A DNA stretch of 64,000 nucleotides from Clostridia bacterium (GTDB lineage: Bacteria > Bacillota > Clostridia > Oscillospirales > Oscillospiraceae), in contig CAWVKD010000056.1 in NCBI GenBank assembly GCA_963929765.1, positions 12,060 to 76,059 of the forward strand. Direction: 5' to 3'. Shown in pieces: positions 33,119 to 39,098 of this stretch. A program made the position numbers and the translations under genes. How positions within the stretch are numbered: position 1 is the stretch's first letter; every line of letters starts with the position of its first letter. The notes below the pieces were generated by a model, which worked only from the letters and a program-made list of their open reading frames with translations, made no database searches and was not told the origin of the DNA.

Positions 33119-34477
33119 ATGCTCAATCAACGAGATATTCTACAGACTATCCGTATGATCGATCAGCAGCATCTGGATATCCGTACCATTACCATGGGAA
33201 TTTCCCTCCGGGACTGTGCTCATCCGGACCCAGAAATATGCTGTGAAAAAATATATCAAAAGATCACGAAACATGCCAAAGATTTGGTATCTACTGGAGA
33301 AGCAATCGAACGAGAATTGGGGATTCCTATCGTAAATAAACGTATTTCTGTAACACCCATTGCCATAGTAGCAGAAAGCTGTGAAACAGAAGACTATGTT
33401 CCTTTTGCAAAAGCATTGGATAGAGCGGCAAAAGCATGTGGTGTGAATTTTATTGGTGGGTTTTCTGCATTGGTACACAAAGGATTTACCCTGGGCGACA
33501 GGCGCTTAATCGATGCGATTCCAGAAGCCCTGTCACAAACAGAGCGCGTTTGCGCTTCAGTAAATGTAGCGACGACCAAGGCCGGTATTAATATGGATGC
33601 TGTAGGGTTGATGGGTCATATTATCAAAGAGACAGCAGCCCGAACAGCTGATCAGGGAGGGCTAGGTTGCGCCAAATTGGTGGTTTTTGCCAACGCAGTC
33701 GAAGACAATCCCTTTATGGCAGGAGCATTTCACGGTGTAGGCGAGCCAGAGTGTGTAATCAACGTAGGGGTATCTGGACCGGGAGTGGTCCATCACGCTT
33801 TGAAAAAAGCAAAGGGTGAGCCTTTTGATGTGGTAGCAGAGACGATCAAGAAAACGGCATTTCAAATTACCCGAATGGGCCAGTTGGTAGCACGGGAAGC
33901 CAGTGCCCGATTGGGAGTACCCTTTGGTGTTGTGGATCTGTCTTTAGCACCAACTCCTGCAGTTGGTGACAGTGTGGCTCGAATTTTAGAAGAGATGGGA
34001 CTGGAGACTTGTGGTACTCATGGTACCACAGCAGCATTAGCGTTGCTTAATGACGCAGTGAAAAAGGGTGGCGTGATGGCTTCTGGTCATGTAGGGGGCC
34101 TTTCTGGCGCTTTTATCCCAGTATCGGAAGATGAAGGAATGATTGCAGCAGCAGAACAAGGTGCTTTGTCATTGGAAAAGCTAGAGGCCATGACTTGTGT
34201 TTGTTCAGTCGGACTGGATATGATTGCGATTCCGGGAGATACATCACCAGAAACCATTTCTGCCATTATTGCAGATGAGTCGGCTATTGGCGTGGTGAAC
34301 CAAAAGACAACGGCAGTACGCCTCATCCCTGCACCAGGCAAGACCGTAGGAGACCGAGTAGAATTTGGCGGACTTCTAGGCAGCGCACCGGTGATGGAGG
34401 TTCATAAGCCGTCTAGCAAAGTATTCATCCAAAGAGGTGGTCGGATTCCTGCACCGCTTCACAGCTTGCGCAATTGA
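33119..34477 (+). CDS. UPF0210/DUF711 (PFL-like) protein of unknown function
   Basis: 452 aa. Reads [24 protein letters not shown] ... and the family resemblance holds over the full length. Confidence 0.9.
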
Positions 34478-35669: not shown

Positions 35670-36206
35670 TTATGATTCCATATGTTTCCCCAAGAAACCT
35701 GCGACGGTTTGCGCCAATTTGTATTCTGTTTCTCCATAAGGAAGAGAGCCAGTGACAAAAATGACGCTACCCAAGACATCGCCTTCCGATAAAATGGGTG
35801 CTGCTACGTCAATGGTAAACCGATCGCTGTCGGAAGAAAGTGGAATGGGCGTTTCATCCCCGCGGCGAAGGTAAATTTGTCGCTTTTCCATCATCTGCTC
35901 TAAAAGATCGGAAATTCGTCTTCCGTTTAATTCTCGCTTAGAGACTCCAGCAGATGCAATAACGATATCTCGATCTGTTACGGCAACTACATGGCCTGTG
36001 GTTTTGTTTAATGTTTCACAAAGTTGGAAGGCAAAATCGGATAGACCTCCCATGAGAGAATATTTTTTAAAGATGACTTCACCATCTTTGTCGGTGTAAA
36101 TTTCCAATGGATCGCCTTCGCGGATCCGCATGGTCTTGCGAATTTCCTTTGGAATTACAACACGACCTAAGTCATCGATTCTTCGGACAATGCCCGTTGC
36201 TTTCAT
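35670..36206 (-). CDS. spoVT: stage V sporulation protein T (AbrB-family regulator with a GAF-like C-terminus)
   Basis: 178 aa. The N-terminal SpoVT/AbrB swapped-hairpin reads MKATGIVRRIDDLGRVVIPKEIRKTMRIREGDPLEIY. GAGGAG RBS upstream. Confidence 0.9.
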   Translation of the reverse strand: MKATGIVRRIDDLGRVVIPKEIRKTMRIREGDPLEIYTDKDGEVIFKKYSLMGGLSDFAFQLCETLNKTTGHVVAVTDRDIVIASAGVSKRELNGRRISDLLEQMMEKRQIYLRRGDETPIPLSSDSDRFTIDVAAPILSEGDVLGSVIFVTGSLPYGETEYKLAQTVAGFLGKHMES

Positions 36207-36497: not shown

Positions 36498-37154
36498 CTA
36501 TCCTCCATAGAAATCTAAAAAATTTCTAGTTTCTGGATGTTTCGGGTGGTACAGAACTATATCAATAGATCCGTATTCCACTAAGATGCCTTTACGAAAG
36601 AACAATGCTTCGTGGGCTAAACGTCTAGCTTGCTGCAAAGAGTGGGTAACCAAGAGCACAGTAGCTCCAGTTTTTTGAACATATTGACGGATTTGTTCTT
36701 CTGCAATAGCGGTTGTTTCCATGTCCATTGCTGATGTTGGTTCATCTAAGATCAACACATCATACGACTTCATCAGTAATCTGGCCAGTGCCATTCTAGC
36801 TGTTTCACCACCGGATAGCTTATTTGCCCGTTTTTTTGCTAGGTGGGTTAGCTGAAGTGCCTCCATTAATGCTTTCATTTTCTGGGCATCTCTACCACCA
36901 AGAGCGATGTTGGCTTGGACACTCATTCGATAAGCGTAACTTTTTTGAGGCATATATCCAACTGCTATATCTGGAGAAAAACCCGCTTTCCTTTGATCTG
37001 CTGGGAATATACCGGCAAGTATTTTACAAAAGGTGGACTTTCCACTTCCATTTGCCCCAATGACAGCATAAATTTTTCCTTTTTCCAGATTCATTCCAGG
37101 GAAGTTCAATACAGTTACTTTGTCATATGTCTTTTGAAAGGCTGACAATTTCAT
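36498..37154 (-). CDS. tupC: ABC transporter ATP-binding protein (tungstate TupC-like)
   Basis: 218 aa from the ATG at 37154, with AAGGAGG 8 nt upstream and an ATGA overlap with tupB. Contains GANGSGKST, LSGGETAR and VLILDEPTSAMD. Confidence 0.8.
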   Translation of the reverse strand: MKLSAFQKTYDKVTVLNFPGMNLEKGKIYAVIGANGSGKSTFCKILAGIFPADQRKAGFSPDIAVGYMPQKSYAYRMSVQANIALGGRDAQKMKALMEALQLTHLAKKRANKLSGGETARMALARLLMKSYDVLILDEPTSAMDMETTAIAEEQIRQYVQKTGATVLLVTHSLQQARRLAHEALFFRKGILVEYGSIDIVLYHPKHPETRNFLDFYGG

Positions 37155-37837
37155 CGACTCAGCCTCCTTTGCAGCAGAGAAATCCCAATATTCACCATCA
37201 GAGAGAGGAGTAAGAGGATGATTCCCAAGGCAATTCCTAGGGAAAAATTTCCTTGGTTGGTGTACTGCATAATGGCTGTAGTCATGACATTTGTCTTCCA
37301 AGAAATTGCCCCACCTACCATAGAAACCGCACCAACTTCTGCAATTGCTCTAGAAAAAGCCAGAAGATAAGCAGAAAAAATTTGATAGATACACTCATTT
37401 CCCAGAAGTGCCGCTGTCTTGATTCGTCCCAGCCTCAGCCCCTTTGCAGTTTCTCTAACTGATGGCGCAATAGAAGAGACATAGCCTTCCATATTTCCTA
37501 TTACAATAGGAGTAATCAAAACTACTTGGGCTAAGATCATAATTTCCACAGTAAACAAAAGACTCATATGCCGCAACGGACCTACTCCAGAAAATAGCAT
37601 ATAGAAAACCAGCCCACACACCACCGGCGGCATACCCATGAGAGTCCGATTTATTACCAGTAGTGCATGACGTCCTCGAAACTGCCCGATTCCCAATAAG
37701 ATACCTAGTGGGACTCCCAATAGCAGCGCCAAAACAGAACTAGATATGCTTGTTTTTGCTGTTACAAGGAGAATATTACACAGCTCTTTATCTGCTGTTA
37801 AAATCAATTGAATGGCTTTTTCCAGAGACTCAACCAT
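37151..37837 (-). CDS. tupB: ABC transporter permease (tungstate TupB-like)
   Basis: 228 aa with 5-6 TM helices and an EAA-like loop (SVRETAKGLRLGRIKTA). Confidence 0.8.
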   Translation of the reverse strand: MVESLEKAIQLILTADKELCNILLVTAKTSISSSVLALLLGVPLGILLGIGQFRGRHALLVINRTLMGMPPVVCGLVFYMLFSGVGPLRHMSLLFTVEIMILAQVVLITPIVIGNMEGYVSSIAPSVRETAKGLRLGRIKTAALLGNECIYQIFSAYLLAFSRAIAEVGAVSMVGGAISWKTNVMTTAIMQYTNQGNFSLGIALGIILLLLSLMVNIGISLLQRRLSR

Positions 37838-37926: not shown

Positions 37927-38934
37927 TTACATAACACCGTCATTAGCAACGAAAGTCAAAAATGTAGCCTTGTCTGTTAAGATGTATGCGTGCATTTGTT
38001 CGGCCATTACCAAACATACTCCCATACCGGCGTTGGCAGAAGTATACCAATCACTATAGTTTGCAAAGGACTCCGGGTCAGCAGTAATACCTAATTCTTC
38101 TGGCCACAGGCTTAGTTCCTTCGTGTGGGTACCTGAGGAGTCACCACGCGATATAAATTTGTACTTGCCATTGGCAATCGCTGCAAATGCATCCAGTACA
38201 CTTTCACAATTGGCAACGTCAGCCGGATCATCAGAGGGTCCGCATAAAACAAAATAATTGTACAGAAAAGATATTCTTTCATTTTCAAAACCGTCTACAA
38301 CACGCGCAAAGCCATCTGCAATAAAGGCCTCCTCTTGACTCTTGGAGTGTACCAAAATTAGGTCGGCATTGCCGTACTGGGCAGCAGCAATGGCTTTGCC
38401 GGTACCAGCAGATTGGATTTCTACAGTGTAACCATATGTCGACTCAAATGTTGGGAGCAGATAGGCTAGTAGGCCAGAGTCGTAAACAGAGGTAGTGGTA
38501 GACAAGCGGATAACTTTGGTTTCCTCTGTGGCAGGTTCGATTTCACCGGTGTAGACAGGCACGTTATCTTGGACATAAAACAGATGCTCTTTGTATTCAT
38601 CTACACCATAGGAATCTGCTAAATCCAGTGCCTCTTGGCTTAGCAGCCAGTGGATAAGAGCATCAGCACCTGCAGTATTGATAGCGACATCTGTAACGGC
38701 ATTTCCTCCTGCGTCGGTAAAAGGAGCATCAGGGTTGACTGCAATAACAGAGTAGGTGTTGAGCATTTGGTCATCTACTTCTTTCAGAATGACAGTGTCA
38801 ACAGCGCTAGCTTCGGAAGTGGGGGCTGCAGAACTGTCCCCATCAGGTGTGGTTTGGGTTTTTTGGTCGGCACCGCAAGAAGCTAAACCCAAAGCCATAA
38901 CCAGTGCTAAGAGTAGTGCTGCCAATTTTTTCAT
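37927..38934 (-). CDS. tupA: tungstate-binding lipoprotein TupA, apparently circularly permuted
   Basis: 335 aa with lipobox LASC. TupA motifs are LSTTTSVYDSGLL and ISRGDSSGTHTKE. See the finding on segment order. Confidence 0.8.
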   Translation of the reverse strand: MKKLAALLLALVMALGLASCGADQKTQTTPDGDSSAAPTSEASAVDTVILKEVDDQMLNTYSVIAVNPDAPFTDAGGNAVTDVAINTAGADALIHWLLSQEALDLADSYGVDEYKEHLFYVQDNVPVYTGEIEPATEETKVIRLSTTTSVYDSGLLAYLLPTFESTYGYTVEIQSAGTGKAIAAAQYGNADLILVHSKSQEEAFIADGFARVVDGFENERISFLYNYFVLCGPSDDPADVANCESVLDAFAAIANGKYKFISRGDSSGTHTKELSLWPEELGITADPESFANYSDWYTSANAGMGVCLVMAEQMHAYILTDKATFLTFVANDGVM

Positions 38935-38954: not shown

Positions 38955-39041
38955 GTAAAATAAAATAGGACAAGCCCTCCAAAACCTAATGAATATAGTT
39001 AACCTATATTGACCCGTTAGGATTTGGAAAGAGGCTCGTCC
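38955..39041 (-). promoter_or_regulatory. structured leader element: long hairpin plus U-tract directly upstream of the tupA RBS
   Basis: On the minus strand GGACGAGCC...GGCTTGTCC encloses nested helices AAATCCTAA/TTAGGTTTT and AATATAG/CTATATT. It is followed by TATTTTATTTT, then GGAGGA and the ATG. Confidence 0.45.
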
Positions 39042-39098
39042 ACCAACTTTCTCAAACTTCCAATATGTAGATTTTGATGGGATAGTCCAGTTTCGTTC

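Follow-up and report, generated by a model that had tools for sequence, protein, structure and literature searches.

The tupA gene and its segment order

The 64-kb stretch of Clostridia DNA analysed here (contig CAWVKD010000056.1; hereafter the window, whose coordinates are used unless another locus is named) carries on its minus strand an operon of the order tupA-tupB-tupC. Its first gene is an open reading frame (ORF 38934-37927) of 335 amino acids (aa), which starts with ATG and ends with a stop codon after ...VANDGVM in the ORF list and its translation. This gene encodes an oxyanion-binding lipoprotein of the TupA type, in which the canonical order (N-terminal part of lobe A, lobe B, C-terminal part of lobe A) is not kept: the protein is rotated, and positions 211-279 of the canonical model precede positions 28-209. 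A sequence-only reading of the same DNA had proposed such a circular permutation, and the motifs it leaned on stand at the residues it gave: LSTTTS at 144-149, ISRGDSSGTH at 261-270, LTDKATFLTF at 319-328, the lipobox LASC, and a supposedly displaced C-terminal segment at residues 45-124 (nucleotides 38802-38563).

Four independent sequence tests (PDB sequences, NCBIfam, phmmer and a hidden Markov model, HMM, built from 45 canonical representatives) agree that residues 45-124 are homologous to the C-terminal module of canonical TupA, and exclude that they are unrelated to it. When the protein was compared with PDB sequences by phmmer, residues 141-328 aligned to residues 6-178 of both 3MUQ (E 1e-42) and 3LR1 (E 4e-40), and a second domain of the same matches placed residues 43/44-92 on 3MUQ 181-231 and residues 43-69 on 3LR1 181-207, directly after position 178. 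The same two-segment register was found in 5MY5 and 3KN3; both segments thus match the solved TupA structures in register, in swapped order. Against the NCBIfam TupA model, the native protein scores 126.6 bits over two separate stretches, and the N-terminal fragment alone is recognised at model positions 198-250 of 266 (E 4e-4). Once the segments are re-ordered head to tail (136-335 followed by 43-137), a single stretch covers TupA model positions 17-248 at 137.8 bits, and the match to PBP_like_2 (PF12849) extends from positions 3-207 (92.2 bits, E 6e-26) in the native protein to 13-267 of 267 (99 bits). On the canonical HMM, model positions 211-279 are covered by residues 44-123 and positions 28-209 by residues 133-329; no core position is lost or doubled at the break, which is seamless to within ~2 profile positions, much as had been predicted. 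A phmmer search with residues 43-130 likewise retrieves canonical clostridial C-termini (P0130 203-278, E 1e-18; P0135 231-300, E 5e-19), a similarity that chance could by no means produce. The protein hence consists of two segments homologous to canonical TupA, swapped and joined at the old termini; the linker that joins them occupies residues 125-140 and counts 16 aa, slightly fewer than the ~20 aa first estimated.

Predicted structure and ligand site

The AlphaFold2 (AF2) model was calculated from an alignment of 81 rows, comprising 26 permutants with the breakpoint of the window protein (type 1, see below; 49-79% identity) and 55 canonical relatives. It reached a mean predicted local distance difference test (pLDDT) score of 90.8 and a predicted template modelling (pTM) score of 0.80, with pLDDT 84-99 over residues 45-335, and supersedes an earlier run on 25 close homologues (pLDDT 64.7, lobe B unresolved, poor Foldseek scores). 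The predicted elements are those of TupA, rotated: strands 47-51 and 58-66, helices 87-114, the linker, strand 141-147 with TTTS and the central strand 220-233, while the lobe B elements, of which strand 317-321 and helix 322-330 are the last, close the model. Its best Foldseek matches in the PDB are all TupA structures (3MUQ, 3LR1, 5MY5 and 3KN3; E 5e-13 to 2e-10), in line with a type II fold of the PBP_like_2 type. These alignments span only ~192-196 collinear columns (TM-score per target 0.63-0.64 for 3LR1 and 5MY5), because the aligner is sequential and the last ~50 target residues lie elsewhere in the query. In D. alaskensis TupA, lobe A comprises residues 2-76 and 201-251 and lobe B residues 91-200 (PMC5517513). 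By homology, lobe B would include residues 44-60 of the permuted protein and lobe A residues 61-124, and therefore both inter-lobe crossovers would be kept; the two new ends are probably adjacent to each other on lobe B, at the passage from the LTDKATFL helix to the strand after it.

The residues proposed to contact the oxyanion/tungstate in D. alaskensis TupA are TTTS, His59, Arg118, Thr124 and Asp170 (PMC5517513). Their equivalents in the permuted protein, T146-T-T-S149, H196, R263, T269 and D321, are invariant in the alignment of 81 permuted and canonical sequences, and the permuted protein looks fully functional as a TupA. In the mechanism which we propose, the moved module (the last strand of lobe B, the second crossover, and one strand and three helices of lobe A) would follow the lipobox and its tether, the 16-residue linker would lead from this module to strand 1 with the TTTS anion loop, and the LTDKATFLTF helix would be the last element before the chain ends. 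The protein would retain its two lobes, its two hinge crossovers and every proposed ligand contact, and therefore it should close on its oxyanion and dock on TupB/TupC like any TupA. The sole change would be that both chain ends, and hence the lipid tether, are located on lobe B.

Parts of the gene and of the operon

The N-terminus matches lipoprotein-signal models weakly and is modelled by AF2 as a helix at residues 2-18; the tether behind it varies in length and sequence among orthologues. Within the transposed module, homology to 5MY5 assigns residues 47-51 to the presumed last strand of lobe B, followed by a crossover, strand 58-66 (NTYSVIAVN) and helices 87-114, which probably complete lobe A. 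In the core lie His196, the central crossover strand 220-233 and the motifs T146-T-T-S149 (on strand 1), S262-R-G-D, S267-G-T-H and L319-T-D-K; these residues do not vary in the 81-sequence alignment. The linker motif AP.Y.G.I..AT..TK.IR recurs in permutants of types 1, 1b and 3. The short tail ANDGVM appears to be the remnant of the canonical loop leading into the transposed strand; for comparison, canonical junctions read FLSYKNDSDGDKLPNLKILYE (P0130) and FLSMKDSLPNLTILKE (P0135).

The TupB permease and TupC ATPase genes lie directly downstream on the same strand. The ATPase ORF, if delimited mechanically (36498-37301, minus strand), opens at TTG 150 nt inside tupB; its start is most likely the ATG at 37154 (MKLSAFQK), which abuts the tupB stop codon. 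Among the neighbours of the operon is a gene for SpoVT, a sporulation regulator, and the host is therefore a spore-forming Firmicute.

Table 1. Features of the permuted tupA gene, its operon and its surroundings in the window
Feature	Position	Strand	Basis or remark
Conserved leader element of the operon	38957..39056	-	conservation among orthologous loci; ~20 nt upstream of the ribosome-binding site (RBS)
Invariant ~32-nt block, TTTGaAAAG[C/T]GGTGGACGAGCCTCTTTCCAaA	39056-39023	-	
16-mer core GGTGGACGAGCCTCTT	39044-39029	-	
Pairing arm, back to GACGAGCC and CCAAA	38984-38968	-	
T-run	38967-38957	-	~20 nt before the RBS
RBS of permuted tupA	38949-38942	-	
Signal peptide and lipobox LASC (L17-A-S-C20), residues 1-20, MKKLAALLLALVMALGLAS-C20	38875..38934	-	read from translation
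Low-complexity T/S/P/A-rich tether, residues 21-43	38806..38874	-	AF2 pLDDT <50 at residues 20-31
Transposed module (canonical TupA C-terminal ~70 residues), residues 44-124	38563..38805	-	HMM 211-279, pLDDT 84-99
New linker, old C-terminus to old N-terminus, residues 125-140, VPVYTGEIEPATEETK	38515..38562	-	no counterpart in canonical TupA
Core, residues 141-329 (canonical TupA positions ~28-209)	37948..38514	-	3MUQ/3LR1, Pfam PF12849 and NCBIfam TupA matches
C-terminal tail ANDGVM, residues 330-335, and stop codon	37927..37947	-	compared with canonical junctions
tupB-like ABC permease, 228 aa	37151..37837	-	Pfam BPD_transp_1; NCBIfam ABC_perm1 170.6 bits (above cut-off), TupB 146.9 bits
tupC-like ABC ATPase, 218 aa from ATG 37154	36498..37154	-	Pfam ABC_tran; 3' of tupB in relatives too
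SpoVT	35670-36206	-	
DUF711 protein	33119-34477	+	

Breakpoints, fusions and origin

The representatives mapped on the canonical HMM (the 150 best of ~4200 at 50% identity, together with ~440 other proteins) revealed at least six breakpoint classes. Type 1, to which the window protein belongs, breaks at model ~205-220, type 1b at ~191-195 (P0145, P0147, P0160), type 2 at ~164-174 (P0152, P0272, P0365 and P0403, the last being a 90% cluster of 890 member sequences), type 3 at ~96-105, just before the central crossover strand (P0125), type 4 at ~136-146 (P0249, which is also fused to a TupB permease) and type 5 at ~235-239 (P0150, P0429). Every breakpoint falls between predicted secondary-structure elements of the window model, and in all permutants the old C-terminus (~model 278-280) is followed by a new linker and then by the old N-terminus (~model 25-29). 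A lipobox signal peptide is present in most permutants inspected; types 2, 3 and 5 are each found on two or more contigs.

Tandem TupA-TupA fusions, which the sequence-only reading had postulated as intermediates, do exist in-frame: P0141 (466 aa) consists of model positions 1-279 followed by 33-123, the second copy being ~90% identical to the first, and P0158 (827 aa) carries an N-terminal ModA/WtpA-like domain and two complete TupA copies (model 31-280 and 35-278). The canonical junction, which is the site cut in type 1, is kept in P0125 (type 3, ...ATFLTFKSNQPDADLEILIE...) and in P0429 (type 5, ...ATYLTYKKDSLANLSILYE...), and both should therefore derive from a fused ancestor and not from a type-1 protein; P0125 carries the linker of the window type besides. 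P0429 and the type-1 protein P0439 are sisters, 80% identical (bootstrap 99.5%) and with near-identical signal peptides. Elsewhere in the tree, two permutants have canonical proteins as their partners, P0243/P0239 for P0249 (99.5%) and P0148 for P0152 (80%), which suggests independent permutation events; this is a neighbour-joining tree with bootstrap values, whose deep nodes are weakly supported, and we therefore claim no number of independent origins.

The breakpoints and fusions, as well as the alleles of one locus described below, fit an origin by duplication, fusion and trimming. An in-frame tandem duplication or fusion of tupA would have come first, followed by the loss of the 5' part of copy 1, with its signal peptide kept, and of the 3' part of copy 2; this order of events is the one we infer.

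Two tupA alleles, canonical and permuted, at a single locus

In one gut Clostridiales species, a type-2 permuted gene (P0403, 340 aa; L082 6001-7023) and a canonical gene (P0378, 332 aa; L083/L084/L085 6001-6999), whose products share an identical 26-residue signal peptide, lie in a common gene order. On one side are genes for ferredoxin, an aldehyde:ferredoxin oxidoreductase (AOR)-family protein, ThiS, ThiF, MoCF and two MoeA, tupA being transcribed divergently from the AOR-family gene; on the other side is tupB, followed by tupC on the canonical contigs, while the permuted contig ends there in an uncharacterised partial gene. At the DNA level, the upstream flank is 98.9% identical up to gene nucleotide 77 and the downstream flank 97.4% identical from the stop codon on, with the gene bodies between them aligning in swapped order (85.6% and 77.2% identity). 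A single locus of one species can thus hold either form as a cassette, which is a strong argument that one can replace the other in function. If the two orders recombine, partial duplications and new breakpoints could moreover result. Gut-clostridial TupA might even be a living series of canonical genes, tandem fusions and at least six permutants with several independent origins, in which alleles of the same locus are exchanged by recombination; this wider view is in our opinion an even bet.

Distribution, selection and annotation

Relatives with the same permuted order, for which the sequence-only reading had recommended a search, turned out to be abundant. A protein search returned thousands of relatives, the top 120 of which are all 331-350 aa long and 73-82% identical over the full length, and a scan with one genome per species gave 181 loci confirmed by tblastn. 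We examined the best 80 of these 181, all species representatives: each is 65-82% identical to the window protein and follows it collinearly as far as residue 333-335, and in 58 of them the match begins at residue 1-3. Their sources are Faecousia, Limivicinus, Lawsonibacter, Angelakisella and other Oscillospiraceae, Lachnospiraceae, and metagenome-assembled genomes labelled Peptococcaceae; cultured carriers are Hominiventricola aquisgranensis, H. filiformis and 'Clostridiaceae bacterium Marseille-Q4145'. When the relatives are clustered at 50% identity, the 150 best representatives include at least 27 near-complete clusters with a permuted order. A profile search with a diverse alignment returned the same dominant clade and added little diversity.

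Compared with eight orthologues, the nonsynonymous divergence (dN) is 0.10-0.26 and synonymous sites are saturated in all three segments; moved segment, new linker and core evolve at similar rates. The new linker taken alone shows dN 0.06-0.26 and, where computable, a ratio to the synonymous divergence (dN/dS) of 0.1-0.2. As dS is saturated in most comparisons, the usable values are dN and a few dN/dS ratios; all segments of the permuted gene are under purifying selection.

Full-length permutants are named merely 'substrate-binding domain-containing protein' by NCBI. The public calls MBQ3086657.1 and MBR6779882.1 (P0321, P0323) are 192-aa pieces of a 322-aa type-2 permutant. A long-branch clade of type-1 proteins (P0128, P0129, P0131, P0134, P0136, P0140, P0142, P0154, P0156, P0164, P0176, P0180) lacks the TTTS, His and SGTH ligand motifs, with the fold signature kept, and its members may bind a different ligand.

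A conserved leader upstream of the operon

The operon is preceded by a conserved leader element (Table 1), in which the invariant block is followed by a variable hairpin whose arms, as judged by eye, change together between species. Of the 80 type-1 loci, 63 carry a single copy of the 16-mer core, in each case on the coding strand and 90-110 nt ahead of the start; the window, too, has one copy, for an expectation of 0.03. Among the 104 leader matches of a metagenome scan that could be evaluated, 80 precede a permuted tupA, and at least three (L108, L117, L204) precede a gene for a Peripla_BP_2 lipoprotein, which in L204 heads a FecCD/ATPase/XdhC operon, with a second copy of the motif on the same contig before tupA'BC. 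In locus L044, a molybdenum cofactor (Moco) riboswitch takes the position equivalent to the leader element.

RNAalifold on a MAFFT alignment of the leader returned only 3 invariant pairs. A scan for promoters and terminators found no promoter-like site in the leader on the strand of the gene, and terminator-like sites at background level. We therefore take the leader, which no Rfam 15 family matches, for a probable cis-regulatory RNA not described before, and for a candidate riboswitch or attenuator of a Mo/W-related regulon.

Genomic context and alternative explanations

The tupB gene lies directly downstream of the permuted gene in essentially all relatives, and where the sequence of the 80 loci L001-L080 reaches far enough, both tupB and tupC follow it in nearly every case. 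In L044 the permuted gene stands between a Moco/tungsten riboswitch (RF01055, 73.7 bits) on its 5' side and fdhD and a mobA-like gene on its 3' side, and in L039 and L050 an operon begins with the riboswitch and an unannotated ORF, continues with moaA, moaC and mog/MOSC and ends with tupA'BC. This context in relatives, including the AOR-family neighbour of the sister permutant, supports a role in W/Mo metabolism, and the imported oxyanion is most likely tungstate. Taken together, we consider the protein to be the lipid-anchored binding protein of a TupABC-type oxyanion importer and a circular permutant of canonical TupA that arose by duplication, fusion and trimming, a joint reading to which we assign a probability of roughly 0.88. 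Observed here are the permuted order and how widely it is conserved, the operon, the fusions and the other breakpoints, whereas the ligand, a normal function and the order of evolutionary events are inferred.

Several points weigh against this reading. Both fusions, P0141 and P0158, are each known from one contig only, and P0141 has a frameshift-like tail. Of the 81 rows in the AF2 alignment, the 55 canonical ones reach no further than residues ~136-335, and the packing of residues 44-124 is predicted from confidence scores and homology. The cut-off of the NCBIfam TupA equivalog NF041772 (400 bits) is missed by the native as well as by the re-ordered protein; canonical clostridial TupAs fall below it likewise (170-175 bits), and because this holds for the whole clade, the cut-off is uninformative on function. 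In the window there is no Moco riboswitch, tungsten enzyme or cofactor gene: nothing related to Mo/W was found within ~9 kb on either side of the operon, and Rfam, at gathering thresholds and at E<=10, gave no riboswitch upstream of the gene. Selectivity for tungstate over molybdate is not readable from the sequence, and tungstate is favoured by family membership and context.

The latter point bears on the possibility that a TupA-like fold has shifted to another function (molybdate, another oxyanion or a sensor), the permutation being the mark of a neofunctional paralogue. The degenerate TTTS, His and SGTH motifs of the long-branch type-1 clade (P0131, P0136, P0154, P0176 and others) would be consistent with such a shift, as would the occurrence of the same leader before the Peripla_BP_2/FecCD/XdhC operon, and W and Mo are indistinguishable by sequence. 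The window protein and its ~75%-identical orthologues, however, retain every proposed ligand residue, its gene heads a tupBC operon and is the only TupA-like gene found in the window, and in one species the permuted allele replaces the canonical one at the same locus, divergent from the AOR-family gene; we therefore regard a shifted function as unlikely. A more trivial explanation would take residues 21-140 as an unrelated N-terminal add-on to a C-terminally truncated TupA, since Pfam PBP_like_2 spans only residues 136-328 of the native protein and the N-terminal fragment alone has no Pfam match. This fragment nevertheless matches TupA model positions 198-250 and canonical C-termini (E 1e-18 to 5e-19) in exact register with the point of truncation, and the re-ordered construct regains a full-length profile match; register-exact homology and re-ordering refute an unrelated N-terminal domain, and the explanation deserves hardly any credence.

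An artefact of assembly or gene calling, for instance two adjacent tupA copies collapsed or mis-joined, might be suspected from the fact that the window protein is on record on only two contigs and that the place recovered is a 1-kb contig. Yet the same collinear order recurs in at least 80 independently assembled species genomes, isolates included, and in metagenome proteins by the thousand; the reading frame is uninterrupted and comes with a lipobox, an RBS, the conserved leader and downstream tupBC, and purifying selection acts on all segments, which makes an artefact exceedingly improbable. A decaying duplicate was also considered and rejected.

Relation to known permuted binding proteins

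Our literature search found no paper linking TupA or tungstate-binding proteins with circular permutation. The novelty claimed by the sequence-only reading thus stands as far as no described permuted TupA was found, and has to be narrowed in that permuted binding proteins as such have precedents (PMC4990184, PMC2395249). TpMglB-2 (Tp0684) of Treponema pallidum is a permuted, lipid-tethered glucose-binding protein ('Type Ic / Cluster Bc') of type I fold, whose topology occurs in treponemes and in gut Gram-positive bacteria and for which the authors proposed a link to tethering (PMC4990184). Structural permutation relations have further been described among glycine-betaine binding proteins (OpuAC/ProX), molybdate-binding proteins and CysB (CPSARST, PMC2395249).

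With canonical TupA (Geobacter sulfurreducens 3LR1, Desulfovibrio alaskensis 5MY5, Vibrio 3MUQ, Wolinella 3KN3 and the clostridial P0378) the window protein shares the two-lobed type II fold, the proposed ligand residues (TTTS, His, Arg-x5-Thr, Asp) and the tupABC operon, and clostridial canonical TupAs are 55-58% identical to its de-permuted sequence. It differs from them in its rotation (~211-279 first, ~28-209 last) and its new 16-residue linker; termini and lipid tether are on lobe A in the canonical proteins, whereas in the window protein they would be on lobe B. TpMglB-2 is comparable as a natural permutant among the lipid-tethered binding proteins of ABC transporters, one which still binds its ligand. 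Unlike the window protein, it has a type I fold, a sugar ligand and a fourth hinge crossing, whereas the hinge count of the window protein would be unchanged; its moved part is ~13% identical to its counterpart, with no intermediates reported, whereas in TupA the homology of the moved part is plain, and fusions as well as several breakpoints can be seen. The OpuAC/ProX, molybdate-binding and CysB relations belong to the same type II superfamily, in which permutation is recognised as a variation of the fold, but at <24% identity they are detectable by structure only, in contrast to the >55% identity seen here within one orthologous family and, in one case, between alleles of one locus. ModA/WtpA, type II oxyanion-binding proteins of ABC importers as well, are other families with other binding-site residues, whereas the best profile and structure matches of the window protein are TupA. 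New here is thus the combination of a single orthologous oxyanion-binding family at >55% identity, an apparently unchanged hinge count, and the visible fusions, breakpoints and co-existing alleles.

Significance

The biochemical function of the permuted protein is probably ordinary; what is unusual and useful is the evolutionary series, and what is practical is the gap in annotation. Few natural families show the canonical form, a fused intermediate and many permuted products at >50% identity, and this one would allow the model of duplication, fusion and trimming to be tested directly and would show at which loop positions a type II binding protein tolerates new termini. The natural breakpoints at the same time offer validated sites for permuted or insertion-based tungstate/molybdate biosensors. 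As long as annotation remains vague or splits the proteins into fragments, the tungstate uptake capacity of abundant gut Oscillospiraceae and Lachnospiraceae is under-counted, a point of interest as studies now connect tungsten enzymes with short-chain fatty-acid metabolism in the gut. Should the living series described above prove true, permutation would be an ongoing, population-level polymorphism in gut-clostridial TupA, perhaps with a selective advantage from the distance it puts between the lipid tether and the N-terminal TTTS anion loop.

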